Source: Escherichia coli (GTDB lineage: Bacteria; Pseudomonadota; Gammaproteobacteria; Enterobacterales; Enterobacteriaceae). From it: a DNA stretch of 64,000 nt. The notes below the pieces were generated by a model. It did no database searches, had not been told where the DNA came from, and worked only from the letters and a program-made list of their open reading frames with translations. The translations under genes and the position numbers were made by a program. Positions 5,426 to 31,441 of this stretch are shown here, one piece after another; within the stretch, counting starts at the first letter, position 1; each line of letters starts with the position of its first letter. The stretch lies in the NCBI RefSeq assembly GCF_003334385.1, contig NZ_QOWN01000018.1; one strand, given 5' to 3'.

Positions 5426-6259
5426 TCAGGATTCCGGTGGAACCGACATATGGCGGTATTTCACCAGAATGTCATTCTGCCGTTCTGCTTTATTTTGCAA
5501 ATCCCACAGACCACGGTCGATACCATCATTAATCAGGAAAATGACCCCTGTTTCGATAGCCGACATCAGGCACAGCATAACAGGTTCGTTCGAGGTGTAA
5601 CCCACTTCCCCTTCAAGCAAGCGCTGGTAGTCAATAAAGCGGAAAACCCCGGCCTGAACTTCATAGGAAAGTATCGTCTTACTGGTGTTCACCGAAGAAA
5701 GGATCTCGCCGGTACTCACATTGACGACGCGCAGGTTCACGGCAATCTGATCGAGCTGGTATTGCGTGTCGGCACCGATGCCAAAATATCTTGCCCCAAC
5801 CCCGCCAGATTTGACGTTGCTTTCATAACCGATAATCGAACCTTCAACCATGATATTTGCCGCCGTTAAAGATTGCAGCGGGATTCGGTTATTAATGGCA
5901 ACCGTGCCGTTTTCTTGTGCCGCACGAATAATCTTGCGCTCGTTAAGCAGGTTTTGTAAGCCCTGGCGCTCCAGCGGTATAAACCAGCGAGAATCTTTCA
6001 GTGCCGTGACCAGCATTGCCGTGGCGCTTTGCGGAACAGCAGTGGAGAAGTTACTTGCCGGGTAGGGTTTAAATTGCCCGGTTTCGTCCTGAATGTTGTA
6101 TACCGAAACAAAGATTTTACCCGTCGGCGCTGGCAGATGGGTCAAATCTTTGTAGCTCTGAGCACGAGGCATTAATGTCGGTCTGGCGGCTTCTTTAGGC
6201 GGGGCGGTTAAGCATCCGCTCAGTAACATGACGGCAACCAAAAGAAATAAGCGCTGCAT
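5426..6259 (-). CDS. csgG: curli secretion channel lipoprotein
   Basis: 277-aa ORF starting MQRLFLLVAVMLLSGC (lipobox). Matches CsgG. Confidence 0.96.
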   Translation of the reverse strand: MQRLFLLVAVMLLSGCLTAPPKEAARPTLMPRAQSYKDLTHLPAPTGKIFVSVYNIQDETGQFKPYPASNFSTAVPQSATAMLVTALKDSRWFIPLERQGLQNLLNERKIIRAAQENGTVAINNRIPLQSLTAANIMVEGSIIGYESNVKSGGVGARYFGIGADTQYQLDQIAVNLRVVNVSTGEILSSVNTSKTILSYEVQAGVFRFIDYQRLLEGEVGYTSNEPVMLCLMSAIETGVIFLINDGIDRGLWDLQNKAERQNDILVKYRHMSVPPES

Positions 6260-6726: not shown

Positions 6727-7116
6727 TTAGAATTCATCATGCGCCAAATCGCCCGTACTTAATAACGCCTGATTTATCTGGCGACGATTTAGTGCTTCTT
6801 CAGTTTGAATCAGTGCAAAGACGACAGTTTTCTCGAAGTCTCTTTTCAACGGAAATAAAAAAGTCTGGAAAATAACGTCCTGATTGACCGTTATAGTGAT
6901 CCAGCTTCCCCATCGTGCACTGGGCCTTTCATTAATCGTTAAGTTACCCGTATAGTCACTTTCCCATTTATCACTAAAGGCTCGGTAAAAATCATGGCCA
7001 ATAGATGAAACAGTATGGTCAGTTAGCAATCCCGGGACTTCTACCTCAACGGCGTGAAGATTCCCTGCGGCGAACAGAAATTCTGCCGCCACAATCCAGC
7101 GTAAATAACGTTTCAT
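6727..7116 (-). CDS. csgE: curli secretion specificity factor
   Basis: 129-aa ORF in the operon position. Confidence 0.95.
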
Positions 7117-18838: not shown

Positions 18839-19885
18839 TCAGTTCGATACCTGGGGTATTCGACGACGACGTAGACTGTTCCATGAATAGACTGCGTTGA
18901 ATAACACTACGCCAGCGGTGACGAGAAATACCGCTCTGAAACCGTAGTTCGCTGAAATCGCTGCTCCCATCAATGGTCCGGTAACGTTGCCAATATCACG
19001 AAACGATTGGTTATAGCTGAAGATACGCCCGGCGATCTGGTTGCTCGAGTTGTAAACCAACAGTGTCTGTACGGCGGGGAGTAGTGCACCATCGGCGGCA
19101 CCGAGCAAAAAACGTAAAATCCCAAGTTGCAATGGCGTCTGAACGTAAGACATTGGGATCAACAGCAGTACAGAAAAGATCAGCGCTGTAATCAGGATCT
19201 TTTCGGGTCCGATTCGATCGCCAAGTTTGCCGAGTCGTGGTGCACTTAGCAGAGCCGCCACGCCTGGCACCGAGGCGATCATGCCACTGATAAAGGCGAC
19301 GTTACTGACGTTACCCGCCAGTTCGCGGACATACAGCGTCAGAATGGGGGCAATTGAGCCCGTCGCCACCTGGATGATTAACGTAGTGACAAACAGGCTG
19401 AGTACCAGTTTCGGGTTTTTAAGTGATGTCACCACTTCCCGCATGTGCAGCATCTCTTTTTTGCTGACCGGCTGGAATTTTTCTCTGATGCAAAACAGGG
19501 TGACGAAAAAGCAGAGTATGAGCACACTGGCGGTAATAAAGAATACCGGACGTAAGCCGTAGCTATCGGCGAGCAGGCCGCCAGCCATTGGGCCGAGCAA
19601 CGCACCACTAACGCCGCCTGTGGAGAGCGTACCCAGCGCCCAGCCGCTTTTATTACGCGGTACTTGTGTGGCGATAAGAGCATTAGCGTTGGGGACAAAT
19701 CCGCCAAGTAACCCAAGAAGCGCCCGCAGGATCAAAAACTGCCAGATATTTTGTGCCAGCCCCATCAACACCATCACGATGCCCATGCCGAGGGCAGAGC
19801 GTAATAGCATGAGTTTTCGGCCTTTACGGTCGGCGAGTCCACCCCAAAACGGTGAGGCGATGGCCGAAAATAAAAATGTAATGCT
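18839..19885 (-). pseudogene. mdtG: mdtG 3-prime portion (MFS efflux transporter) cut off from its start by the insertion
   Basis: The frame reads ...[34 protein letters not shown]... to stop at 18839. It continues the 62-codon N-terminal piece at 31260-31441. Upstream of 19885 the frame hits a stop inside foreign DNA. Confidence 0.93.
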
Positions 19886-19907
19886 GATATTTGTTCCCTA
19901 AATACAC
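19864..19907. other. attL-type junction: mdtG arm / shared CTGA (proposed CT core 19884-19885) / element arm GATATTTGTTCCCTAAATACAC
   Basis: The host reading frame is lost within 19881-19887. The same CTGA occurs at the other junction (31260-31263). Confidence 0.75.
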
Positions 19908-20048
19908 CATGAGAACATACCTGTTAATAACAGGACAATATCAGGTGAATGATTATGCAATTCAACGGTGTTTTTCCAAGTATCTAAGCAGTTTTACACA
20001 GATTCTATGCAGTATCGGTATAGTCTCTTTTTAGCATAACTTATTGAT

Positions 20049-20080
20049 ATCTATAAAGAATCTGTGAAGTCTCTTTTCAG
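20049..20080 (+). repeat. left copy of a roughly 32-bp direct repeat ATCTATAAAG-A-ATCTGTGAAG-TCTCTTTTCAG flanking the small recombinase gene
   Basis: Aligns with 21162-21191 (ATCTTTAAAG-T-ATCTGTAAAG-ACTTTTAAG), about 25 of 32 positions, same orientation. Degenerate extra copies lie at about 20022-20037, 21127-21140 and 21229-21254. Confidence 0.7.
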
Positions 20081-20287
20081 GGTAAACTGTATCGTGTTAG
20101 TCGTCCCTCTCTCGACTCCTAGAAAAGTGCTATATACAGGGCTATATAACGATATATAGATAGTTGGTCACATGGTGTAACTATCAAGAAACTTAACGAT
20201 TTCCTACGTGAAAGTTAGAAAGTGATGGTTATAGTTACCCTCCTAAAATCTTCATAGCTCCTTCATAACCAGTCTTAAAAGGACTTC

Positions 20288-20393
20288 CTTATGAGACACT
20301 TTCAACGTAACGGTAGAATGCACCTTCCAAGTGTCTCATAAGCTTGTTTTTGAATTATGAGACAGCTAAACTTATGAGACCAACTTTTGAGAC
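20288..20393 (+). promoter_or_regulatory. cluster of five TTATGAGAC-type boxes, including a perfect 14-bp inverted repeat, directly upstream of the small serine recombinase gene
   Basis: Boxes lie at 20289-20297, 20333-20341 (inverted), 20355-20363, 20372-20380 and 20385-20393 (TTTTGAGAC). CTTATGAGACACTT (20288-20301) is the exact reverse complement of 20329-20342. A possible weak promoter TTGAAT-17-TATGAG overlaps the boxes. Confidence 0.6.
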
Positions 20394-20408
20394 TTCTTAG
20401 GGGGATGT

Positions 20409-20957
20409 ATGGCGGTGATTGGTTATTGCAGGGTATCAACACAAGACCAGACTGTAGACAACCAGAAACTACAGATAGAGAAGGTTCACAAGGTCGATAA
20501 ATGGTTTATTGATGAGGCTGTCTCAGGAGCTACAAAGGCCACCAGCAGAGATGGTTTTAGAGACATGATGAACTATGTAAGGTGTGACGATACGTTAGTT
20601 GTGGTAGCTATTGACCGTTTAGGGCGTAATACCGTTGATGTGCTCTCTAACGTGGAGGCACTACAGACTAAAGGTGTGAGGGTTGTTTCTCTACGTGAAG
20701 GTTTCGACTTATTAACACCAATCGGTAGAGCAATGCTTACTATGATGGCTGGTTTAGCTGACCTTGAAAAAGACCTTATCAGTGAACGTAGAAAGGCTGG
20801 TATTGAACGTGCTAAAGCTGAAGGGGTTCACATGGGGAGACCTGTAAAAGCTTCTTCAGAGACTGTAAAGATGCTTATCTCACAAGGTAAAACGAGGTTG
20901 CAGATTCAGGAAGAGCTAGGAATCTCTAGAGCAACTTATTACAGACTTGCTAAATAA
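20409..20957 (+). CDS. small serine recombinase (resolvase/invertase family) with C-terminal HTH
   Basis: 182 aa. N-terminal IGYCRVSTQDQ catalytic-serine motif, DRLGRN, and C-terminal GRP...GISRATYYRL HTH. AGGGGGA RBS 5 nt upstream. Confidence 0.9.
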   Translation: MAVIGYCRVSTQDQTVDNQKLQIEKVHKVDKWFIDEAVSGATKATSRDGFRDMMNYVRCDDTLVVVAIDRLGRNTVDVLSNVEALQTKGVRVVSLREGFDLLTPIGRAMLTMMAGLADLEKDLISERRKAGIERAKAEGVHMGRPVKASSETVKMLISQGKTRLQIQEELGISRATYYRLAK

Positions 20958-21161
20958 GTTACTGAATAGTTACATGGATGTAGCTGATATTTGGCTTTTT
21001 TGCAAAGGGGGTCACATAGCTGGTGTGACGGGTACTTAGCAGGTATAGACCTGTGATAGATATTTTCGAAGATTCGGGGAAGATGAGATTCAAAGAGGGC
21101 TAGTCATTTTTTATAAAAATTTTCAGAATCTGAAAAGTTACTGTACAGAATATATACAGAC

Positions 21162-21191
21162 ATCTTTAAAGTATCTGTAAAGACTTTTAAG
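21162..21191 (+). repeat. right copy of the direct repeat flanking the small recombinase gene
   Basis: See 20049-20080. Confidence 0.7.
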
Positions 21192-21300
21192 ATAAAAGAT
21201 AGATATCCAGAAAGGATATCCGTTTAGAAAGACTGTTAAGTATCTCTTAAAAGAGAGTAAACCTTGTCAATAGTGATTGCAATAAAAATTTTTATTTCTT

Positions 21301-21963
21301 ATGTCAATTGAGCATATTTTAATCGGGAAGCATCATGGGGGTTCTGATTACTGGAGAACTCCATTTTTGTTATTTAAGAATCTAAACTGTGAATATATTT
21401 TCACGCTGGATGGTGCTGCAACTAAGCACGATACGTTATTACCCCGCTTTACGGATGATATTCACAATCAATCGTGGATTGGCGAAAGGGTGTTCTGTAA
21501 CCCGCCGTACAGCGATATTCCGTCGTTCCTCATAAAAGCGTCTGAGGCAGATTTAGCGGTATTCCTGATACCGTATAGAGCCAACACCAGCTACTGGCTT
21601 AGGCACATTTACAGCAATAACCACTGTCATGAAATCCGTATTCTTCATCGTGCAGTTAAATACCTTCCACCAGCAGGCCATAACGGGCTTACTATTCGTT
21701 CACCGTTTCCAAGTGCAGTCATTGTTTTTAAAAAAGAACCACGCAGGCATGAAATTACGCAGATGATTTGCTGTGCTGATACATTGCTACCGTTAACCAT
21801 CATTAACAGAGGAGGCTTAAGAGGAAGACCCACCATTTACCCACCTGAGACGCTCGACAGCTTCATAAAACTATACAGGCAAGGAAAACCCATTAAGTGC
21901 ATTGCAGATGCTCTCAGAATGCCTCTGAGCACGTCATACAGGATTGCGCAAAGGTTGAGCTAA
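21301..21963 (+). CDS. phage-type DNA N6-adenine methyltransferase (NPPY motif) fused to a resolvase-type C-terminal HTH
   Basis: 220 aa. SDYWRTPFLLF...LDGAA...VFCNPPYS is typical of the phage Dam-like family. The C-terminus GRPTIYPPETLDSFIKLYRQGKPIKCIADALRMPLSTSYRI resembles the DNA-binding tail of resolvases. No obvious SD, so the start is uncertain. Confidence 0.7.
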   Translation: MSIEHILIGKHHGGSDYWRTPFLLFKNLNCEYIFTLDGAATKHDTLLPRFTDDIHNQSWIGERVFCNPPYSDIPSFLIKASEADLAVFLIPYRANTSYWLRHIYSNNHCHEIRILHRAVKYLPPAGHNGLTIRSPFPSAVIVFKKEPRRHEITQMICCADTLLPLTIINRGGLRGRPTIYPPETLDSFIKLYRQGKPIKCIADALRMPLSTSYRIAQRLS

Positions 21964-22067
21964 AATTCTCATAAATATGGTCATTTACAAGACAGGTGAT
22001 TCAGATATTAAGAAGTATCCCTGTGAACAATAAATGACCAATCAGTAATTATTCTGTGAAATAATTG

Positions 22068-22096
22068 TTGCAATTTATAATCACATCTGTTATAGT
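22068..22096 (+). promoter_or_regulatory. sigma70-type promoter TTGCAA-17-TATAGT upstream of the replication gene leader
   Basis: Hexamers at 22068-22073 and 22091-22096 with a 17-nt spacer. Confidence 0.55.
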
Positions 22097-22274
22097 TTCT
22101 ATATGGGCTGATAAAAAAGTTCATGTCTTGAAGTGGTAACACTTGGGGAGGTGTCAGATGGTTGGCGTATAAAACCTCTCATTCATGGTATACCTCAGCG
22201 TTTTAATCATCGTACTGTTTCAGGCATGGACTTCTTTATCAGTCCATCAATCCCCCAGATATTTTAATCACACA

Positions 22275-22304
22275 GGCTAATCGGTTTTATCCGGTTGGCC
22301 TTTT
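22275..22304 (+). terminator. terminator-like hairpin (possible attenuator, or end of a roughly 200-nt leader RNA) 20 nt before the rep start
   Basis: GGCTAATCGG-TTTTAT-CCGGTTGGCC (10-bp stem with two G-U pairs) followed by TTTT. Confidence 0.5.
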
Positions 22305-22325
22305 CACATATGAGGTATTTTATGA

Positions 22326-23294
22326 ATGAAAAAAGAAACTAATGCTTTTATTATGGTAGATAAACGAGTTGCACAATTCCCTAAAACATTAAAGCCAATT
22401 GACCGCTTGGTATATTTCACTATGCTGGATGGTGCTGATTATTACGAATCTAAGTTCGGGAGATATGCACCAAGTATTGACTATTTGATGGTTATGTCTG
22501 GTGCTACACGTAATACAGTTATTGACTCTCTGAAAAGACTTGAGTCACACAGGCTTATTGAGAAGACCAATATCAAAGGGCAGCAAAGTATTTTTAAAGT
22601 ATTCACGTTAGATGAGCGTCCAGAAGTCTTATCAGAACCTACCCTTGATGAGCGTCGTAGAGTCAAATTATCAGGTCAACCAGAATCTGACACTAACCCA
22701 ACCAAAAATTGGTTACCTACCCAACCAGAATTTGGTTACCTACCTAACCAGAAATTGGTTACATGTAATACTGAATATAAAGACAAAAATATAAAAACTA
22801 AAGAAGAAAGACTAAAAGGGAACTTTGAAGAAGAATCTCTTAAGAAGGGAGCTTCGCTCTGTGATTCACATGAATGTGATATTAAAGAAGATGACTTTCT
22901 TTCTTTGGATGAATTAAATGATTTTCTCTCTATGAATGAATCTGACCTTGATAGTGAAGCTACTAAAGAGGTCGTTAAAAAGGAAGATAAAATCTCTGAT
23001 GTGATTGCTAGTAGTGACCATAAAAACACACAGTGCCCCGCCACTGATGATGAGATGGACCCCTTCGATGATGATGAAGAGGATGAAGAGTCAGAACGTG
23101 AAAAAGCCATTAAGAGGGTAGAGAAGAAAAAGAGATTCGAGCTTGCAAGACAAAAGAACAAAGTATCGGGTTTAGACCCATTCGATGACAGTGAAGATGA
23201 TTATTATCTTTCACCGAGAAAGAAACAAACCCAGGATGACAAGAAGCAAAAAATTAAACCGAAGATGTATTTTGCTGGTGGAGGTATGCGCTAA
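22326..23294 (+). CDS. putative replication initiator (N-terminal winged-helix-like domain, iteron-encoding linker, acidic/Lys-rich C-terminus)
   Basis: 322 aa with GAGG RBS. Its architecture parallels lambda O: the origin iterons lie inside the gene. Function is inferred, not recognised by homology. Confidence 0.55.
   Translation: MKKETNAFIMVDKRVAQFPKTLKPIDRLVYFTMLDGADYYESKFGRYAPSIDYLMVMSGATRNTVIDSLKRLESHRLIEKTNIKGQQSIFKVFTLDERPEVLSEPTLDERRRVKLSGQPESDTNPTKNWLPTQPEFGYLPNQKLVTCNTEYKDKNIKTKEERLKGNFEEESLKKGASLCDSHECDIKEDDFLSLDELNDFLSMNESDLDSEATKEVVKKEDKISDVIASSDHKNTQCPATDDEMDPFDDDEEDEESEREKAIKRVEKKKRFELARQKNKVSGLDPFDDSEDDYYLSPRKKQTQDDKKQKIKPKMYFAGGGMR
22678..22810. other. putative origin of replication: half-iteron plus three 23-bp-spaced palindromic iterons AACCA-N5-TGGTT, then an AT-rich tract
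   Basis: AACCAAAAATTGGTT at 22700-22714, AACCAGAATTTGGTT at 22723-22737, AACCAGAAATTGGTT at 22746-22760, and a half-site AACCAGAAT at 22678. The A/T-rich run 22761-22810 follows. Confidence 0.65.
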
Positions 23295-23584
23295 TGAGAG
23301 AATATAACGGTGAAAAACGATACAAAGATTATCTATTAAGGCGCTACAGCATTTCTCGTGAAGGTCATCTTCTGAAAGATACTCATGGGGAGGTTTACCG
23401 GATTCGACCGAAGAAGGAAGGAAAGAATTATTTCTTTTTTGATGGTGTGACAGATTTAAAGATTGACGCTTTGAGGTTTGCAGTGCTGTATCATTATGAT
23501 ATCTGGGATTCGGTCCACCAGCTACGATTAAAAGACGGTGACCCCGGTAATCTGAGGGCCACCAATATCATCACAAAACGTTAG
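23294..23584 (+). CDS. small protein of unknown function (weak NUMOD4/HNH_3-like pattern)
   Basis: 96 aa, ATGA-type overlap with the rep stop. YSISREGHLL...LKDGDPGNLRATNI faintly recalls homing-endonuclease-associated DNA-binding modules. Confidence 0.45.
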   Translation: MREYNGEKRYKDYLLRRYSISREGHLLKDTHGEVYRIRPKKEGKNYFFFDGVTDLKIDALRFAVLYHYDIWDSVHQLRLKDGDPGNLRATNIITKR

Positions 23585-23766
23585 TTTGTTTTACCATCAT
23601 CAATCGTAATTGTGATTTCATATTTGAAAAGCTTAATGCTGAAATTGAATCGTGTACTTTTGGCGATAATCATTTTTAAAAGCTGATACACCAGAAGCAC
23701 CAGAAACACAAAGCAACCTAAGCTTGCGAATCTGTGAGATTCAGCAATTGTTTCAAGAAAGCCCAT
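23581..23766 (-). CDS. 61-aa single-pass membrane protein (toxin-, holin- or exclusion-like candidate)
   Basis: It has its own promoter TTGTCA-17-TATTAT and SD AAGGGGA. Hydrophobic core LGCFVFLVLLVYQLLKMII. It is the only minus-strand gene in the element besides the integrase. Confidence 0.5.
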   Translation of the reverse strand: MGFLETIAESHRFASLGCFVFLVLLVYQLLKMIIAKSTRFNFSIKLFKYEITITIDDGKTN

Positions 23767-23816
23767 TAATTCCCCTTATTTATCAAAGGGAATGACCTGT
23801 ATCAGCCCCTATAACC

Positions 23817-23867
23817 ATAATATCATGTAAATGAGATGTTGACAATATGTTAAATAAATGTTAAGAT
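23817..23867. promoter_or_regulatory. back-to-back divergent sigma70 promoters with overlapping -35 hexamers
   Basis: Plus strand: TTGACA (23839-23844)-17-TAAGAT (23862-23867). Minus strand: TTGTCA (complement of 23840-23845)-17-TATTAT (complement of 23817-23822). Confidence 0.65.
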
Positions 23868-23903
23868 TGTAGTATGAGTAAGAGATTTAAGGAGATTTTT
23901 ACA

Positions 23904-24194
23904 ATGACTCACACAGTTACGCGCCTTTTGCCAGAGGCATTTGAACGACTGGCAGCAATCAAAGCCAAATACCCTGATATGAAGCACACGGCGCTTGTTG
24001 GAGAGCTTTTAAAAGAGTCGGTAGCCCTGACCCCTTTCGATAACGTTAAGGGCGTTGCAGAGGGTTCTAAGGCCATCAGAATCACAACAGGCCAACTGGA
24101 ACTACTCAAAGCGCAGTCCGCAGTAGCAGGTTGCTCAATGATTCAGGTGTTAAGCACTAAGGTTCATCAACTGGCGGATAAATTGGAGGTTTAA
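23904..24194 (+). CDS. putative tandem ribbon-helix-helix DNA-binding protein
   Basis: AAGGAG RBS 9 nt before ATG 23904 (the ORF track start 23874 is less likely). Two beta-alpha-alpha-like segments: HTVTRLLPEAFERLAAIKAKY... and AIRITTGQLELLKAQSAVAG.... Confidence 0.5.
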   Translation: MTHTVTRLLPEAFERLAAIKAKYPDMKHTALVGELLKESVALTPFDNVKGVAEGSKAIRITTGQLELLKAQSAVAGCSMIQVLSTKVHQLADKLEV

Positions 24195-24580
24195 TGTATG
24201 ACTTTTATAAACATCGTGACCATTTGGTAAGATTTGACGGTAGAGTCTGGAAAGACATAACAGAAACCAATAAACCCAAGTTTACCCACCAGCAATTAGC
24301 CTCAAGATTTGATATCTGGACTGAAGCACAAAAAGATAATGGTGATTTCGAGTTTATCAGGGGTTTTGATTATGCTTACGAAGATGACCTTAAAGACGCC
24401 ATTAAATTAATTGAAAATTTTAATGGAAATAATTCTGGTGACAAACACAAAGCCAATGGTAATCGGTATGACAGGGAGTTAATTCTTGATGCCATTTCCA
24501 GAGGTCAATCACAAAGTTATATTTCTGAGAAATACGGCTTATCACGTAGTCAATACTACAAGATTAAAGCGTCTGTGTAA
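24194..24580 (+). CDS. hypothetical protein with resolvase-type C-terminal HTH
   Basis: 128 aa, TAATG overlap with the previous gene. C-terminus ISRGQSQSYISEKYGLSRSQYYKI. Confidence 0.55.
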   Translation: MYDFYKHRDHLVRFDGRVWKDITETNKPKFTHQQLASRFDIWTEAQKDNGDFEFIRGFDYAYEDDLKDAIKLIENFNGNNSGDKHKANGNRYDRELILDAISRGQSQSYISEKYGLSRSQYYKIKASV

Positions 24581-24717
24581 GCCTGTGAGAATGAGTGAGA
24601 CTCAAAGATGAGCTACCCTATTACTAAGGTGTCTCACTCCCTCTGTAACCCGCATGGTTACTGGCCTCAGAATGGCTATTTTGGCAGATTTAAGATGTGT
24701 TTTAGAGGAATTTAAAA

Positions 24718-25041
24718 ATGAACAACTTCCCATTACAAATTTTCGTTGATAACGACACCGCTCTGATGATTCAGGCTTTCACTGATTCCGGTGTATCAAT
24801 TGACTTTGACAGGCTGTTAGAGTTGATGGCTGATAATGCAGAAAACATCTCTGACTTTATTCAGTCGGTGGAGTTTAACGAGCCTCGAATGATGCTACCA
24901 ATTAAAGACAGCAACATGAAAAGATTGGTTATCGAGCAAACGAACAAATACAGCGTTAGCCCTGAAAGATATCTCAAGGCAGCTATAGCAATTTTGTGCG
25001 CTGACAATATTTTGGTGACGGATTCGAAGGTGGTGCATTAA
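24718..25041 (+). CDS. hypothetical protein
   Basis: 107 aa, AGAGGA RBS. No recognisable motif. Confidence 0.5.
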   Translation: MNNFPLQIFVDNDTALMIQAFTDSGVSIDFDRLLELMADNAENISDFIQSVEFNEPRMMLPIKDSNMKRLVIEQTNKYSVSPERYLKAAIAILCADNILVTDSKVVH

Positions 25042-25118
25042 TGGGCTTAATAATTGCTTGGACAGCTTTGGGTTTATTTGTTGGTTGCTGGGTAGGTAAC
25101 ACAGTAAATAAGAATTGA
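25041..25118 (+). CDS. possible 25-aa hydrophobic peptide (MGLIIAWTALGLFVGCWVGNTVNKN), translationally coupled
   Basis: TAATG overlap with the preceding stop. Below the ORF-track size cut-off and found by reading. Confidence 0.3.
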   Translation: MGLIIAWTALGLFVGCWVGNTVNKN

Positions 25119-25143
25119 TGTTGCCAATCTGTTAAAAAGCTGT

Positions 25144-25172
25144 TGACAAATAACCTTAAGCATGACATAATT
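25144..25172 (+). promoter_or_regulatory. sigma70-type promoter TTGACA-17-CATAAT heading the late/structural operon leader
   Basis: Hexamers at 25144-25149 and 25167-25172. Confidence 0.6.
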
Positions 25173-25535
25173 TTAATTATGGGAGAGTAATTCTCTCTTA
25201 TATTTCTTTCAATAATCCGATGGATGGATGGATATTCTGAGTTGGTGAGGTATGTTCTATACCGAACATTCTGAAAGGTGCAATGCTTTTCGCTACATGA
25301 CCTCTTATATAACCTGAGAGGTCATCTCGAAAAGTACTCTTGTTCATTCGTTATTGAATCCTTTAGATGTTTTAATTTCTTCACCTTATGAATAGCCCTT
25401 TATAAGAAATTATCTAGGGCTATTCAGTTTTTAAAAAGCATACTTGGCAAACCGCCTTTTAAGTCTCTTCTAAGTTCGTAGGCTGTCAGGTGTGCTTTTT
25501 AAAAACTGAATATACTTAGAAGAGGAAATGAAATA
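25173..25535 (+). promoter_or_regulatory. roughly 360-nt non-coding, hairpin-dense leader (candidate cis-regulatory RNA or packaging/recognition site)
   Basis: No ORF with an RBS. Hairpins at 25184-25198, 25253-25270, 25298-25326 (9 bp) and 25391-25426 (10 bp). A 20-bp perfect inverted repeat (25422-25441 and 25494-25513) overlaps the last hairpin. Confidence 0.55.
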
Positions 25536-26246
25536 ATGGCAAATGACATTTATATTAGTGGAAGAAAAATTGATAGCTTCGGTGACTGGTCGCCACAGAC
25601 TGAACATCCAGCTATCGTTATTCAGCGTAAAGAACACGATGCGAGAATTGAGCTTGAGCAAGAGCTAAAGATGTCACCAAAGCAAATTACCTTTGTGTCT
25701 CCTGAGCCTCAAGAGATGCCTGATGTATGCAAGAGTGAAGCATTGCTTGAGCTTGAAAAGAAATATTTCCCAGCTTTAAAAGCACAGCGTCTTAGATTAG
25801 ATGACGCTTACAGCAAAGTTACCCTGATGCAATCAGCTATTGAACCGTCAGAATTTGAGATTCAGGATGAATTGTCACAGAAACCATTTGTTTATTACCA
25901 ATATGCAGACAATGATGGTTTTGGTACTTTTCCTGAGAATATCCCAGACGCGATTAGTAGTCTTCCTGATGGATATCGAATTGTGAAGATGGTTAAAGCT
26001 TCAAGGGGTGCTGGTCAATTTATTTATATGACCAATAAGAGCGATGAAGAACTCGCTGAACTTGCTAGACAGAACATCTTGGCATCACGTAACAAGCAGC
26101 TTGATAGTGCTAAGTTGTATCTCTCAAGAGAGCTTCAGGCTATGAAAGAGCTTGTTAGTGAATATGAGTCGCAGAAGAAGATTGCTATGCAAGCTGATAT
26201 TGAGCAGTTAGTGAAGATTTCTCAGAAGTATAGTAAAGCACTTTAA
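25536..26246 (+). CDS. hypothetical protein with coiled-coil C-terminus
   Basis: 236 aa, GAGGAA RBS. No recognisable family. Confidence 0.55.
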   Translation: MANDIYISGRKIDSFGDWSPQTEHPAIVIQRKEHDARIELEQELKMSPKQITFVSPEPQEMPDVCKSEALLELEKKYFPALKAQRLRLDDAYSKVTLMQSAIEPSEFEIQDELSQKPFVYYQYADNDGFGTFPENIPDAISSLPDGYRIVKMVKASRGAGQFIYMTNKSDEELAELARQNILASRNKQLDSAKLYLSRELQAMKELVSEYESQKKIAMQADIEQLVKISQKYSKAL

Positions 26247-26270
26247 TTATGAATTAAGAAGAGGTGATTA

Positions 26271-26480
26271 ATGTTTGAAGAACGTTTAGAGACTATTCGG
26301 TCTGTTTGTGAAAACTTAAAGTTACAAACCAAGCCAGCCTTAAGAATTAAAACCAAACATCAAATTATCACCTCACACAAACCAAAAACACGCAAGATTC
26401 CAAAGTGGTGTATTGACCGTATTCCTTCTGATGCTCAAATCATAGGTGAAACGGAATTACATTATCTTGTCCGACATTAA
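26271..26480 (+). CDS. hypothetical basic protein
   Basis: 69 aa, GAGGTG RBS. Confidence 0.45.
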   Translation: MFEERLETIRSVCENLKLQTKPALRIKTKHQIITSHKPKTRKIPKWCIDRIPSDAQIIGETELHYLVRH

Positions 26481-26503
26481 AAATTGGTTGGGTAAAATCA
26501 ACG

Positions 26504-26544
26504 GGAGAGATTATCGAGTGACATCGGTAGTTTCTCCTTTTTTT
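26504..26544 (+). terminator. imperfect hairpin plus T-run (possible terminator or pause) before the tape-measure gene
   Basis: GGAGAGA...TTTCTCC outer stem followed by T7. Confidence 0.4.
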
Positions 26545-26577
26545 GTATATGAACACTTAAGAGGTGAAAAAATATGA

Positions 26578-28749
26578 ATGGCACAGTTTAAAGTTGATGA
26601 TTTTCTGATTGAGCTAGGTTTTAACTCTCAGAGGGTTTTAAAAGGTCTGGAAAAAGCCGAGAAACAAACGATGCAGGTAGCATCACGAATTGAGAAGCGA
26701 TTGAATAAAGCTTTTAAAGTTAACCCTACGCCTTTAAATGATTCTCTCAAGGTCATGGAAAGAAATGTCGATAAAACTGTTTCCAAGATTGAGCAGCGTC
26801 TTAAAAACACTAAAGCGTTTAAGATTAAAACGGAAATTGAGGATACTTTAAAGCCACTTAAACAACCGAGACAGCCACGAATTAGCGGCAACAGAGCAAT
26901 CACAGCAGCACATAGTGTGAATATGTCTAAGCTTGGTGATATTAATCCGCTGATGGCTAAAATGTTTAAAGCACAGTATTACAGCTTAAGCGGTAAGGCT
27001 GGTAATATTGGAAGTGAAAAGTTTAACGCTGAACTTGCAAAATTAAATCAATCTCTTCGTGAAACGTTGAATAAACTCAGGTCACAGACAAAGACCGCCA
27101 GCATCAGCAAAGTAAATGATTCCTTTAATAATCTTGCAAGCAATGCAATTAAGTTATCTGGTGCATTTTACTCTGTGATGGGTGCTCTTAACGCTTACAA
27201 GGCCATTATGAATGCAGGTCTTAAACGAGATTCCGCACAGAGAGCCGCTAAGTTTGTACTTGGTGATAAAGCATCTGAAGCTGAAACATTTATCAGGGGA
27301 CTGGCTGACAAGACAGGTCTTAATATCTCTGAAGGACTATCAAGCTACGCTAAGTTTGCAGCAGGTGCTCAGGGTTCTATGTCACAGGAACAGACACAGG
27401 AGCTATTTGGTAATGCAACGGCTATGAGCCGTTTAATGGGGCTTTCTAACGATGAACTAAACGGCATTTTGAAAGCTTTTGAGCAGATGGCTTCTAAGGG
27501 CAAGATTCAGGCTGAAGAATTACGTGGGCAGTTAGGTGACCGTATGGCTGGTGCATTTAAGCTATTCGCTGAAGCATTGGGTATGACTGCTACAGAGCTT
27601 GATGCAGCCATGAAAAACGGGAAGGTACTTTCCGCTGATACTCTCCCTAAAGTCGCTAAACAGATGGGCTTGATGATTGATAAAGCGGGTGGCTGGGCTG
27701 AAGTCGCTAAGAGCACCCAGACAGCTTTAGGTAAGTTAGCAAACAACTGGGATGATACGATGGTTAAAATCTTCTCAGGTTCACAGGATGAGTTAAACGG
27801 CTTCTTATCCAGCCTGGGTAGCCTGCTTAGTGAAATGGGGATGAGTTCTTCTATCGCTGGTGATGCTATCGGTGGACTTATCGACATGCTTAAAGCTGGT
27901 GTAGATGATATTCGCGTATTCAATAACACCATTGAAGGCTGGATTTTACAGGTTAAAAAGTTCTATTACAGCCTTGATGACACTAAACGAAAACTACTTG
28001 ATGAAGTCGGTGATGGTTTTATCAATTTTGTCAAAGGTCTTGCTATAGCGTTATCTGCAAAGACGCTATTCAGTGCCACTACAGGGGTGATGAACCTGAC
28101 AAGAGCAATCACAACGTTAGGTACAAGAGCTAATCAGGTGGCTGGTCAGGTAACTACTGGTAAAGGTGGTGGAAAACTGAAAGGTGTAGCTGGTGGTGTA
28201 GGTAGTGCTCTTGCAATTGGTTATGCTGATGACGGTTATGAAACAGCGTTAGCATTAGCTTCAATGATTCCACAAATCAGAGGTGTCACCCTTGGTTTAT
28301 ATGCATTGAAGAAAGCACTGGATTTTATGAATCAGGAAGTAGTCAAAAACGCTAATATGCATCCATCTGGGGTAGGTGTGGGTAGTGACTTTAATCCTGT
28401 GTATTCTGGTGACCCTAATAAACCGAATATGATTAACGAAGGATGGAGTAAAATTTTTAATTCAATGGGTGAATTGTTTAACAATGCCACAATGAATATT
28501 GCAAGATTCAATCATCCAGAATTAAACAACATTAAGCAAGATTCAGCATTAACGAGTGCAGATATTCAGAGTCTGAGGGATGAAATTAGTGCTTTGAGTA
28601 AACGTATTCAGGAGCCTGTGAAAGTTTCACTTGGTGGTGAAGTTGCCATTAAACCAGATGAAACCAGCTTTATGACCTTTAGCAGTAATATCTACGACCA
28701 ATATGCAGAAGCTACGCTATTAAGTTCATCATTCCCAGAAGATGATTGA
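26578..28749 (+). CDS. phage tail tape-measure protein
   Basis: 723 aa with a coiled-coil N-terminus. The central tape-measure signature is GKIQAEELRGQLGDRMAGAFKLFAEALGMTATELDAAMKNGKVLSADTLPKVAKQMG. Gly-rich hydrophobic segments lie near the C-terminus. Confidence 0.8.
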   Translation: MAQFKVDDFLIELGFNSQRVLKGLEKAEKQTMQVASRIEKRLNKAFKVNPTPLNDSLKVMERNVDKTVSKIEQRLKNTKAFKIKTEIEDTLKPLKQPRQPRISGNRAITAAHSVNMSKLGDINPLMAKMFKAQYYSLSGKAGNIGSEKFNAELAKLNQSLRETLNKLRSQTKTASISKVNDSFNNLASNAIKLSGAFYSVMGALNAYKAIMNAGLKRDSAQRAAKFVLGDKASEAETFIRGLADKTGLNISEGLSSYAKFAAGAQGSMSQEQTQELFGNATAMSRLMGLSNDELNGILKAFEQMASKGKIQAEELRGQLGDRMAGAFKLFAEALGMTATELDAAMKNGKVLSADTLPKVAKQMGLMIDKAGGWAEVAKSTQTALGKLANNWDDTMVKIFSGSQDELNGFLSSLGSLLSEMGMSSSIAGDAIGGLIDMLKAGVDDIRVFNNTIEGWILQVKKFYYSLDDTKRKLLDEVGDGFINFVKGLAIALSAKTLFSATTGVMNLTRAITTLGTRANQVAGQVTTGKGGGKLKGVAGGVGSALAIGYADDGYETALALASMIPQIRGVTLGLYALKKALDFMNQEVVKNANMHPSGVGVGSDFNPVYSGDPNKPNMINEGWSKIFNSMGELFNNATMNIARFNHPELNNIKQDSALTSADIQSLRDEISALSKRIQEPVKVSLGGEVAIKPDETSFMTFSSNIYDQYAEATLLSSSFPEDD

Positions 28750-28905
28750 TTTAACGGTGTTCTACGTGAATAAAGCAAAGTTAATACCCGCACTAAAAAT
28801 TATTTTTTACGTAGCACACGCTTAACAGAGAAAATACTTATATATCAAAGGCTTGGTTAAAAATGATTAAAATACACTAAGCCTTTGAAATCAAAGGAGA
28901 ATTTA

Positions 28906-29694
28906 ATGATTTACTCTAATCAACTTCGTTACAGTGGCAAAGATGGTGTTTACTTCCATCTACAAGGCCAACCAGATAATTTCTTGTCACTATCAGCAAC
29001 AGAGAACATGGAATTTGACAGCCCTATGATGGTGACCACTCAAAATATGCAATCAGGGCAGACTGTAACAGATAATGTAATGCGTTCACCCAGAACTATT
29101 TCAATCAGTGGTGTGGTTGTAGTTGGTGAATCCGGTAGTATCCTCATCTCAAGAGATAATAAGCTGGTGGAAAACTTCATCGACACTCTTGAAAGCTGGC
29201 GTGACCAGAAGCAAATTATTTCGGTCATCTGTAAAGACGGAATTAAAATTGATGATTCTATTATTACGAGTTTTAAAGCCTCTAAAGATGTTGGTATTTC
29301 AAATGGTCTAAGAGTCCAGCTAACTTTTCAGGAAATTAACTTTAAAGCAATTGTAGGGCAAACTGATGTTTCAGCAGCTACTGGCAAAGCTGCCACCACG
29401 AATGACGGTGGTGTGACCAGTAAGAAGAATGCAGGTAACGTGACCACTGAACGCAATAACGCGCCTATGCTATCGTGCAAAGAGTTAATGAATATTAGCG
29501 ATGTATCCGGTTACGTTCCGGCTATCAGAAATGATATTCTCGATGCTCAGATTAAGTGCAATAAAGCTTGGAAGCTGGACTATTCAGACTTAACAGAAGC
29601 TGAAAAAACCAACGTCACCAATGCTAATAGTAACGCTGGTCGAGTAGCTTCAAAGCTTAAAAAGTACTCAGTGAATCCTAATAAGAGATACTAA
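28906..29694 (+). CDS. putative distal-tail (Dit-like) / baseplate-hub protein
   Basis: AAGGAG RBS before ATG 28906 (the track start 28885 is TTG). The N-terminal pattern [36 protein letters not shown] resembles Dit-like tail proteins, and it sits directly after the tape-measure gene. Confidence 0.45.
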
Positions 29695-31220
29695 ATCTCT
29701 ACTACATCAACATCTATTAAACCCCTCTCAGTGACTTCAGAAAGCGACTGTATAGCCTCTGTAACGTTGTCTGAGGGGTTTTCTGTTATAGGTAGGTCAA
29801 TTACCTTGCCGTTGTGAAAAGTCACTTTACAGCGACGTTTAGCGGCATCTATAACTATTTCTTTGAGTACGCCCTTGATAAGTAGCTGTGTCTCTATCAT
29901 CCCTTCCTTTGTTGTCCTGTCAATATCTTTGAGGCTTCCAGTTGTGATGGCCTTTATCCGCTGTGTTTCCTCTTCGATATCATGATTGAGTTTTGATAGC
30001 GCATTCTTCATATCACGTAATTTCTCTGTGATAATTGTCATGTCATCGAGTTCAATAGCGAGTTCTGCCATTTTTGAGATTTTACGCTGCAAATCTTCAC
30101 GCTGTAATTTAAGGCTATCAATAGTGTCAGTATTTTCAGTTTCAAAACGGTCGCATAATGCGAGCATGTAGAGAATAGTTGCATCCGTTTGCTTACGACT
30201 GATAGCCTTTGCACTACACCTGTTAGCTGAACGATTAGGGCATCTGTACATCCCAAAACGTTTTAAGGCATATCCACCAAGAACAATAGTAGCCCCACAC
30301 TCAGAACATTTGATGATACCCCTGAACAAGTTGACTGATAGCGGATTACTTGATACAGAAGCCCTACCATATTGCCCTGTGTTCAGTTGCTGTACTCGAT
30401 AGAATAGTGACTCACTGATTATTGCGGGGTAGTAACCCTGAACTTCTTCACGTCCAGCAGGTGTGAAACATCCAATCACAGCACGATTTCTGAGTAGTTT
30501 CTTTACAGCAGTATCAGACCACCCCTTTTGTTTGGGTGTGTATTGATTCAATGACAAGTGGCCTTCATCGTTTAAAGTTCTGGTGATAGCCCAAAAGCTT
30601 AAACCCTGTAATCTCAGGTCAAATGCTCGTTTAACAACTTCCACTTTATCGGGGATGATAGTGAATGTTCGACGGTCATCATTCAGCCTTAACCATGCAG
30701 GACAACGCCTAGATACCTTGATACCTTCGGAGATGAGTTCTTTTTTACGGTTCCATGCAGCTTGGACACGCTCAGACTTCCTCAGACTTTCCTCATGCGC
30801 CCGCTGCATTATCAGAATGCTTTTAATCAGGGATAACGGGTCTTTTAAACTTTCTCGTGTGTAATGTTCACCATCGGACAGGGTGACTACATCTACACCA
30901 GCCCTTAAGATACGGCGTAATAGCTCAGAAGCAATATCAATATCCTGACGTGACAGACGGTCTAAACTCTCGATTAGTAGCGTATCACCAGCTTTAACAA
31001 GCCCTTTCTCGATAGCGGTTAGAAAGTCACCTAGACCACCTTTCAGGTGCTTACCACTAAAAGCACTTTTCCCCAAATCTTTAAAGCTCAAGGATGAATC
31101 CAAGTAAAACTCAGGGTTCTTATCAAGCCAGTCAGTAACCAGCTTAGATTGTCTGCGTACAGAGTCCCCTTTTAGTTGTCGTTCACTTGAAAATCTGATG
31201 TAGCTGATTGCCCGTCTCAT
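29691..31220 (-). CDS. large serine recombinase (integrase)
   Basis: About 509 aa from ATG 31220 (the track begins at TTG 31226). [11 protein letters not shown] catalytic motif, DRLSRQ, a recombinase domain, a zinc-ribbon CSECG...[11 protein letters not shown] and a long coiled-coil. It lies 40 bp from the junction. Confidence 0.92.
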
Positions 31221-31239
31221 ATTCAATACCTAAAATGAT

Positions 31240-31281
31240 GTGTTTAGGAACCCATTATACTGAAGACAATACCGGACCACA
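31240..31281. other. attR-type junction: element arm GTGTTTAGGAACCCATTATA / shared CTGA (proposed CT core 31260-31261) / mdtG arm
   Basis: The mdtG frame (…[10 protein letters not shown]) leaves host sequence here and terminates after 3 foreign codons (MGS stop at 31244). Confidence 0.75.
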
Positions 31282-31441
31282 TATTCAGGGCGGAGTGACC
31301 GGTAACGCCAAGCTGCTCAACGTAGAGGGGTAAGAAGGGCATTACCAGACTGAAGGCGGCACCGGTAAGAAAACAGCCTAGCCAGGCGACGATCAGGTTT
31401 CGTTTCCAGTTTATAGGGGTGTCATTTTCACAGGGTGACAT
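31260..31441 (-). pseudogene. mdtG: mdtG 5-prime portion (first ~62 codons)
   Basis: [62 protein letters not shown] matches the MdtG N-terminus. Confidence 0.93.

Follow-up and report, generated by a model that had tools for sequence, protein, structure and literature searches.

The stretch of DNA analyzed here (the window, 64,000 nucleotides of contig NZ_QOWN01000018.1 from Escherichia coli assembly GCF_003334385.1) contains an integrated island, in which two small genes of opposite orientation, orf61 and orf96b, flank a short intergenic region with two back-to-back promoters, P_left and P_right. The best explanation for this region is that it is the central transcription-control region of a satellite-like island. 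We propose a composite model, to which we assign a probability of about 0.5, comprising an auto-repressed divergent promoter pair similar to those governed by Arc and TraY, and a translationally throttled, exchangeable membrane-protein cassette. In this model, the ribbon-helix-helix (RHH) protein encoded by orf96b would bind four direct heptad repeats as a train of monomers, with one asymmetric pseudo-dimer per repeat, as TraY of the F plasmid does, and would repress P_left together with its own operon (RHH protein, helix-turn-helix (HTH) protein, and on towards the genes for a tape-measure protein (TMP) and a Dit-like tail protein). The leftward mRNA that escapes repression would be translated at a low level owing to a leader hairpin, yielding small amounts of the orf61 membrane protein. 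The features of the promoter region and of the rightward operon are as follows.

23839-23867, plus strand: P_right, with the -35 hexamer TTGACA (23839-23844), a 17-nt spacer and the extended -10 element TG-T-TAAGAT (23859-23867; TAAGAT at 23862-23867)
23817-23845, minus strand: P_left, with the -35 hexamer TTGTCA (23845-23840), a 17-nt spacer and the extended -10 element TG-A-TATTAT (23825-23817; TATTAT at 23822-23817)
23825-23864, minus strand: candidate operator array of four direct heptads, TTAACAT, TTAACAT, TCAACAT and TTTACAT
23889-24194, plus strand: Shine-Dalgarno (SD) sequence AAGGAG (23889-23894) and orf96b (23904-24194, 96 aa), the first gene of the rightward operon
24194-24580, plus strand: orf128, whose start overlaps the orf96b stop, with a C-terminal HTH at residues about 91-125

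Divergent promoters, heptad repeats and the RHH protein

The first-pass annotation of the window had described two near-consensus divergent sigma70 promoters with overlapping -35 hexamers, and this description holds: P_left and P_right each match 10 of the 12 consensus positions, both have a TG-extended -10 element, and their -35 hexamers overlap at 23839-23845. The predicted transcription start sites (TSSs) are near 23810 and 23874, respectively. Promoter-like matches are not enriched overall (6 observed versus 6.3 expected in a 2.5-kb scan, 27 versus 31 in the element), so the pattern alone proves little and it is conservation that carries the case. Sites with at least 10 of 12 matches number only five in the 11.6-kb element, and three of them possess the TG, P_left and P_right being among these.

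Across nine homologous loci, identity to the window is 83-100% in the promoter core (23796-23867). In the flanks of these loci it drops to 36-51%, with 48% reached in the segment containing the hairpin and the translation initiation region (TIR), 50% in orf61 and 36% in the rightward 5' untranslated region (5'UTR). The -10 element of P_right is TAAGAT or TAAAGT, with the TG, in every variant that has an intergenic region of 131-137 nt, while that of P_left differs only at positions 3-4 (TATTAT, TAATAT, TACTAT), with A2, T6 and the TG invariant. Mosaic junctions are found at 23767-23960 (loci L001-L010), where the left cassette (hairpin and orf61) and the right cassette (5'UTR and the start of orf96b) occur in all combinations, which makes the core a conserved hub for recombining alleles. 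Three alleles of the left cassette occur among these loci, or six allele groups when all examined loci are counted; the right cassette has two alleles. Comparison of the intergenic region with 50,697 phage genomes returned chance matches only, and a search for the conserved promoter pattern in one genome per species returned one single match, in Escherichia.

The back-to-back architecture noticed in the first-pass annotation is present in the window; it is not kept in E. albertii, though the gene, the -10/+1 box and the TIR hairpin stay. The E. albertii islands (L017 and L018, positions 5915-6001) have an 85-nt intergenic region with neither the heptad array nor back-to-back -35 hexamers. Another island (L022, positions 6834-7001) has a 166-nt region, and there the gene for a DndE-like (RHH-like) protein of 93 aa comes after that for an unknown protein of 185 aa. 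Both of these architectures keep the -10 element, the GGCTGATA box described below, the TIR hairpin and the small ORF.

On the minus strand the heptads start at 23864, 23853, 23842 and 23831, i.e. with an exact 11-bp period, and the array runs from the extended -10 element of P_right over both -35 hexamers to the edge of the extended -10 element of P_left. It is the sole chain of at least three such motifs in the window on either strand and arose in none of 5000 shuffles of the intergenic region, these statistics being generous because the motif was chosen after it had been seen. The array is kept in the allele variants v1-v4 listed below. By analogy, direct repeats spaced by one helical turn would suit a train of asymmetric single-chain RHH monomers.

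For orf96b, the start at ATG 23904, regarded from the outset as better served than ATG 23874, stands behind AAGGAG, is conserved and is the one annotated by PGAP; ATG 23874 is absent from the second right-arm allele. The AlphaFold2 (AF2) model of the protein, calculated from a 22-sequence alignment, has a predicted local distance difference test (pLDDT) score of 63 and contains the beta-alpha-alpha unit twice in one chain, packed as a pseudo-dimer; on this model, orf96b is a single-chain tandem RHH protein. Searches of Pfam, PHROG and NCBIfam, and of PDB sequences with the whole protein and its halves, found no match, and thus none to a curated RHH family. Its match table, with scores, reads as follows.

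F-plasmid TraY: 6.8
permuted single-chain Arc: 6.3
DndE: 4.7
AvtR: 4.5
PutA RHH domain: 4.4
many CopG-family antitoxins: lower

A faint DndE match was also obtained for the 93-aa counterpart of orf96b in L022. The HTH of orf128 is recognized by the Pfam families HTH_28 (E 9e-4) and HTH_23 (E 7e-3), both under the gathering score. The RHH/HTH character suspected for the rightward genes is thus borne out, and is sharpened to a single-chain tandem RHH protein followed by a protein with a sub-threshold HTH.

It had been suggested that the region is a bistable phage switch, at which maintenance or induction of the element is decided. In such a CI/Cro-style arrangement the two promoters would fire in mutual exclusion, leftward for quiescence and rightward for induction. 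Divergent promoters with shared candidate operators, as in a CI/Cro-type switch, are present here, the overlapping -35 hexamers make simultaneous occupancy by RNA polymerase unlikely, the region lies between replication and "late" genes, where lysogeny modules lie, and no other repressor was found in the island (Pfam, PADLOC, NCBIfam). The lack of a CI/Cro-type repressor, reported in the first-pass annotation, is confirmed: none of ten element proteins has an XRE/CI HTH according to Pfam, and NCBIfam and PADLOC gave none either. However, a CI/Cro-type switch has a repressor gene on each arm, whereas the regulator candidates lie on the right arm only; the left arm has no DNA-binding product, and hence there is no positive feedback loop for the leftward state. 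The array lies symmetrically over both promoters and predicts co-repression, not mutual exclusion. Moreover, the element has no capsid, terminase or lysis genes, and hence no autonomous lytic programme to switch to, and the replication arm is under its own promoter with an RNA attenuator-like leader. We consider the switch interpretation improbable.

Co-repression by an RHH protein has precedents. In phage P22, the divergent promoters Pant and Pmnt overlap and are both repressed by Arc, and CopG, encoded by the first cistron of its operon, represses that operon (PMC2724298). TraY is described as a monomer with the complete RHH dimer fold in a single chain, and as occupying three neighboring DNA sites as a train (PMC12117103). 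The region resembles P22 immI (Arc/Mnt) in its divergent overlapping promoters, the RHH gene that comes first in one arm, and the candidate operator inside the shared promoters, from which both could be repressed, as in P22 (PMC2724298). It differs from immI in that the RHH protein is a single-chain tandem form and the candidate operator consists of four direct heptads and not of a palindrome. Furthermore, the other arm encodes a membrane protein instead of a second RHH repressor, and a satellite-like island takes the place of a temperate phage as the host. Unlike TraY, with which it shares 13% sequence identity, orf96b has no match to the Pfam TraY family, and while TraY acts at oriT in conjugation, the island has no relaxase or oriT context. 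With the CopG-RepB operon of pMV158 the island shares a small RHH protein as the first cistron, CopG repressing its own promoter across the -35 and -10 elements (PMC2724298); in contrast to that operon, the one in the island leads to an HTH protein, unknown proteins and tail genes, and Rep is on a separate promoter with an RNA leader.

The leader hairpin and the orf61 membrane protein

The features of the leftward arm are listed below.

23769-23793, minus strand: leader hairpin, with the 5' arm AUUCCCUUU (23793-23785), the loop GAUAAAU and the 3' arm AAGGGGAAU (23777-23769), which holds the SD sequence
23581-23766, minus strand: orf61, predicted 61-aa bitopic membrane protein
23294-23584, plus strand: orf96a, last gene of the rep operon, 96 aa, convergent with orf61

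Counted from a TSS near 23810, the orf61 leader is about 44 nt long, in agreement with the roughly 45 nt estimated earlier. The SD-burying hairpin described in the first-pass annotation is present, with 9-10 bp including one G.U pair, but its true place is 23769-23793, one base off the 23768-23792 given there. The AUG lies 2 nt downstream. The hairpin has a local folding free energy of -9.8 kcal/mol and appears in both the minimum free energy and the centroid folds, with pair probabilities of at least 0.99. All six allele groups have their own hairpin at the same place, over the ribosome-binding site (RBS) or the AUG, and although the arm sequences differ, their complementarity stays. The arms, written as sense RNA (5' arm / 3' arm), are:

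v1: AUUCCCUUU / AAGGGGAAU
v2: UUUCCUUU / AAAGGAAA
v3: CCCCU / AGGGG
v4: CCCC / GGGG
v5 (E. albertii): CGUUCC / GGAAUG
v6 (L022): CCAUUC / GAAUGG, covering the AUG

On the opposite strand, A.C mismatches would replace the G.U pairs of v1 and v5, so the hairpin is a structure of the sense RNA and not a DNA palindrome. Among 300 composition-preserving shuffles, SD pairing as good as the natural one was found once for v1 and never for v2. A hairpin is present in all alleles, but strong occlusion of the TIR is confined to v1, v2 and v5 and, over the AUG, to v6. Comparison of the allele sequences indicates that the leader hairpin is a conserved and co-evolving feature, which most likely lowers translation.

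As judged from its alleles, orf61 is a real protein-coding gene that is subject to purifying selection. An alignment of seven alleles from E. coli, E. albertii and Citrobacter contains no frameshift, the proportions of synonymous and nonsynonymous differences being 0.5-0.8 (pS, saturated) and 0.03-0.42 (pN), with dN/dS values of 0.08-0.57. The protein begins with a tail that contains an invariant ESHRF motif and continues with one transmembrane (TM) helix; a basic juxtamembrane stretch follows, and the C-terminus, of alternating polarity, forms a beta-hairpin. In the AF2 model (pLDDT 72) the helix spans residues 3-35 and the strands residues 39-46 and 49-56. The single-pass membrane ORF proposed at 23766-23581 is therefore borne out, both by the selection pattern of its alleles and by the modelled TM helix. 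According to the positive-inside rule, the ESHRF tail would be periplasmic and the basic beta-hairpin cytoplasmic. The TM segment (23640-23700, minus strand) contains a 9-bp unit, CTTCTGGTG, coding for LLV, whose copy number varies among strains (proteins P0002-P0005); the resulting variants of 58, 61, 64 or 67 aa are always in frame. A HMMER profile search of 1.84 billion representative proteins revealed four clusters of orf61 homologs at 50% identity, all from this island family, and no more than 12 close relatives turned up when 5.8 billion proteins were searched by a word index.

The reported 4-nt overlap of orf61 with the convergent ORF of the rep operon is confirmed (23294-23584 versus 23766-23581): the stop codons of orf96a and orf61 overlap at 23581-23584, with no terminator in between. 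No good terminator was found after orf61 either, the minus-strand candidates being weak 5-bp stems at 23180-23167 and 23046-23031.

A small hydrophobic ORF with the RBS buried in a leader structure is typical of type I toxin mRNAs, such as hok/sok, tisB/istR and zorO/orzO. In a type I toxin-antitoxin system acting by post-segregational killing, orf61 would be a membrane toxin silenced by its leader and neutralized by an antisense RNA, either read-through from the rep operon or a small RNA (sRNA), and would stabilize the island. Its small size, its hydrophobicity and the RBS within the leader hairpin agree with this, as does the fact that every allele combines a single-TM protein of 58-63 aa with a TIR-occluding hairpin. 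Because the 4-nt convergent overlap lacks a terminator, plus-strand read-through would be fully antisense to orf61, and a weak plus-strand promoter-like site at 23471-23500 could also yield an antisense RNA. On the other hand, the leader is short for a type I mRNA, no gene for an antisense sRNA was found, and the protein exceeds such toxins in size and carries a soluble beta-hairpin domain that is conserved. Neither a conserved dedicated antisense promoter/terminator pair nor an Rfam match was detected. Only the convergent rep-operon mRNA could serve as antisense, and yet orf61 persists where the convergent rep/orf96a partner is replaced or absent (E. albertii, L022). Pfam gave no match to Hok/Gef or any other toxin family, and the invariant ESHRF together with the conserved 25-aa beta-hairpin domain suggests a specific partner rather than generic membrane damage. 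The toxin idea raised in the first-pass annotation thus lacks both an identifiable antisense RNA, which defines such systems, and a family match, and we consider it unlikely.

With its small membrane protein, the island has an accessory gene of a kind also known from satellites. Among the small inner-membrane proteins of phages and their satellites are the exclusion protein gp15 of HK97 and the lysis modulator LidI of PLE. We speculate, with a confidence well short of even odds, that orf61 is an accessory membrane effector directed against phages that infect the cell, with a part in exclusion, abortive infection or lysis timing; such a role fits the cassette-like allelic diversity, the restriction to one island family and the Felixounavirus-derived tail genes described below. 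Any specific assignment, be it exclusion, abortive infection, lysis timing, toxin or sensor, is doubtful at best.

The replication arm and the shared 5' box

The neighboring rep operon has its own promoter and leader, and a short box is common to P_rep and P_left.

22068-22300, plus strand: P_rep and its leader, with TTGCAA, a 17-nt spacer and TATAGT, with the TG (22068-22096)
23800-23807, minus strand: GGCTGATA box at P_left, 8 nt after the -10 element, at about +3 to +10 of the leftward transcript
22106-22113, plus strand: GGCTGATA box at P_rep, 8 nt after the -10 element, with the same spacing

P_rep is followed by an imperfect hairpin RNA of about 145 nt (22103-22247; 55 bp, of which 11 are G.U), which begins with the GGGCUGAUA box. 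Its folding energy is -71.9 kcal/mol on the plus strand versus -47.7 kcal/mol for the reverse complement (z = -5.3), and in a variant leader (L006, L017) another stem sequence preserves the fold. Just before the SD and ATG of rep322, the initiator gene, stands a terminator-like hairpin with a T-run (22273-22300). The RNA has no Rfam match; its sequence and predicted fold make it a candidate for an attenuator or an sRNA that controls the initiator.

All six allele groups carry the GGCTGATA box unchanged, even those of the E. albertii and L022 islands, in which the region is otherwise different. The base of the long hairpin in the rep leader is made up by the box, which pairs there with UUUAUCAGUCC, and no conserved partner for it was found in the orf61 transcript; one candidate, UGUAUCAGC at 23684-23692 inside orf61, is present in allele v1 only and was taken as a coincidence. 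The box may serve both promoters as a protein operator at +3 to +10, or both transcripts as an RNA element. This brings up the possibility that RNA is the main product of P_left, either as an antisense transcript that reaches through orf96a to the 3' end of rep322 and damps the rep operon, or through a 5' GGGGCUGAUACA box that shares a factor or RNA partner with the rep leader, orf61 being a passenger. The absence of a good terminator after orf61 speaks for it, as do the invariance of the box and its recurrence at the same spacing at P_rep, with the pairing to UUUAUCAGUCC there. However, the orf61 protein is clearly under purifying selection, the box is retained in L022-type islands that have neither the P_rep RNA nor rep322, and the orf61 transcript contains no conserved partner. 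We strongly doubt that the main product of P_left is RNA.

It may also be asked whether the intergenic core is a replication origin, with the four repeats spaced by 11 bp serving as Rep iterons in AT-rich DNA. The helical periodicity of the direct repeats, the AT-rich conserved non-coding stretch and the proximity of the rep operon would agree with such a function, and the E. albertii islands, whose Rep has a different C-terminal part and which have no orf96a, do not carry the array. Yet the N-terminal DNA-binding domain of Rep is nearly identical in these array-less islands, and the repeats coincide exactly with promoter elements. A better candidate is found inside rep322 (22696-22764, plus strand), where three tandem 23-bp repeats, ACCCAACCAAAAATTGGTTACCT, each contain an internal palindrome. 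Iteron origins inside the initiator gene are the arrangement of lambda O-type initiators, and rep322 is weakly related to these. As far as the repeat sequences indicate, the origin is probably not in the intergenic core, rep322 being the better candidate site, and we give the core little chance of being one.

Several observations weigh against the composite model. Besides the post hoc choice of the heptad motif, the E. albertii islands (L017, L018) keep an RHH protein with 82-86% identity alongside an 85-nt intergenic region that lacks the array, which would mean either that the link between the RHH protein and the heptads is wrong or that regulation has been rewired there. The GGCTGATA box common to P_left and P_rep is not explained by co-repression. 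On the side of the throttled cassette, the folding z-scores of the whole leader are not significant (-0.5 to -0.9), SD pairing is unremarkable in v3-v5 (36-87 of 300 shuffles are as good), v6 buries the AUG only, and other genes of the island show comparable values of the crude SD-pairing metric, which does not set orf61 apart. Finally, orf61 has no match in Pfam, PHROGs, PADLOC or NCBIfam, and a Foldseek search of BFVD with its AF2 model gave nothing at E <1, so neither provides a hint of function; its alleles do not co-vary with those of TMP or Dit, which is attributable to the mosaic nature of the island.

The host island and its meaning

The island splits mdtG, whose halves flank it at 18839-19884 and 31244-31441 (both minus strand); the junctions are at 19884-19886 and 31250-31255, and mdtG is broken after ...GIVFSI.

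19886-31252, no strand assigned: integrated island of about 11.4 kb, splitting mdtG in the E. coli chromosome

In other strains the same island is found in yecE, between yciI and tonB, and at further sites, and the serine recombinases of islands at different sites are divergent (26-69% identity). The 461-nt switch region is present in 127 of 5426 complete E. coli genomes, and parts of the 2.8-kb regulatory module in 464 of them. No description of the island was found in the searchable literature.

The left part of the island encodes a small resolvase/invertase, a Dam-like methyltransferase fused to an HTH, rep322, orf96a and, on the opposite strand, orf61. The right part encodes orf96b (tandem RHH), orf128 (HTH), four unknown proteins without matches, TMP, the Dit-like protein and a large serine recombinase. 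Rep322 is a 322-aa winged-helix protein that resembles replication initiators (PHROG "replication initiation protein" and "O-like", E 5e-8 to 1e-6). No capsid, terminase or lysis genes were found in the island, TMP and Dit being its only structural genes, and Pfam, PHROG, NCBIfam and PADLOC gave no match to hallmark genes of P4 (AlpA/Sis/Psu/Delta) or PICI (Stl/Ppi/TerS), to the cfPICI capsid or to the PLE core. The island thus has, as satellites do, an integrase and its own replication module without a full set of virion and lysis genes. The host element is not a prophage; with its serine recombinase, its own initiator and no virion gene set, it looks, from gene content, like an undescribed satellite-like or defence island.

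The genes for TMP (26578-28749) and the Dit-like protein (28885-29694) are homologous to adjacent Felixounavirus genes, bas63_0017 and bas63_0018 of phage JohannRWettstein (MZ501086), with amino acid identities of 32% and 66%, respectively, and DNA identities of up to 83-86% over about 500 nt (phage loci L011 and L012). The remaining island proteins have no match in the Felixounavirus phage, and the island is a strong mosaic. The limitation of the homology to TMP and Dit points to Felix O1-like phages as the target of a satellite or defence island, and these two genes are the only circumstantial evidence that such phages act as helpers. Satellites of virulent myoviruses, such as V. cholerae PLE with its phage ICP1, are a loose parallel in possessing a large serine recombinase, their own initiator and myovirus-related genes, with no capsid, terminase or lysis genes. 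No sequence homology to genes of PLE, P4, PICI or cfPICI was detected in the island, and to our knowledge TMP and Dit homologs are not hallmarks of any described satellite family.

One may go further and see in the region the hub of a new E. coli/Citrobacter family of satellites or defence islands that parasitizes virulent Felix O1-like myoviruses, as a counterpart of PLE. The ESHRF protein would then be an infection-facing effector or sensor, active, for example, at the point where tape-measure protein and DNA enter through the inner membrane, and RHH control would be joined by RNA-level control through the 5' GGGCUGAUA box. The sharing of this box between the orf61 leader and the rep-leader RNA of about 145 nt would be reminiscent of P4 RNA immunity. 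Taken as a joint claim, this is quite unlikely to be right in full.

Several further observations were made in the island. Between a 69-aa ORF and the TMP gene there is a strong intrinsic-terminator-like hairpin (26503-26547, plus strand; 15 bp followed by seven T), so that expression of TMP and Dit may need antitermination or a separate, possibly phage-dependent, promoter. An unannotated 25-aa hydrophobic ORF, MGLIIAWTALGLFVGCWVGNTVNKN, at 25040-25117 (plus strand) starts in the TAATG stop/start overlap that ends orf107, and its sequence suggests that it may be a second small membrane peptide, translationally coupled. The 500-nt gap at 25041-25536 contains the best sigma70 match of the island (25143-25210, plus strand; TTGACA, 17 nt, CATAAT, with the TG, 11/12), directly followed by a hairpin with a T-run (25178-25210), with weak sub-threshold Rfam noise nearby; this segment could give a very short transcript or an attenuator. 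A scan of the whole island against Rfam with E up to 1 returned noise only. Upstream of the Dam gene, a 62-nt patch (21179-21240, plus strand), which includes a GATATCC...GGATATC hairpin, is 87% identical, in reversed orientation, to an intergenic region with divergent promoters in Felixounavirus (79780-79840). Mimicry of a phage promoter by this patch was considered and dropped, as the motif does not recur within the phage.

The regulatory devices described here are of known kinds, in a new combination and in a new host element, and their anatomy is more elaborate than the first reading of the sequence had it. The promoter core, the candidate operator array and the single-chain RHH protein offer a compact entry point to the way in which the island is silenced and switched on, and the allelic series of hairpin plus ORF amounts to a natural compensatory-mutation experiment on translational occlusion. 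Felixounaviruses are virulent phages used for typing, biocontrol and therapy in Salmonella and E. coli. If the island senses or interferes with them, it could affect the outcome of all three.

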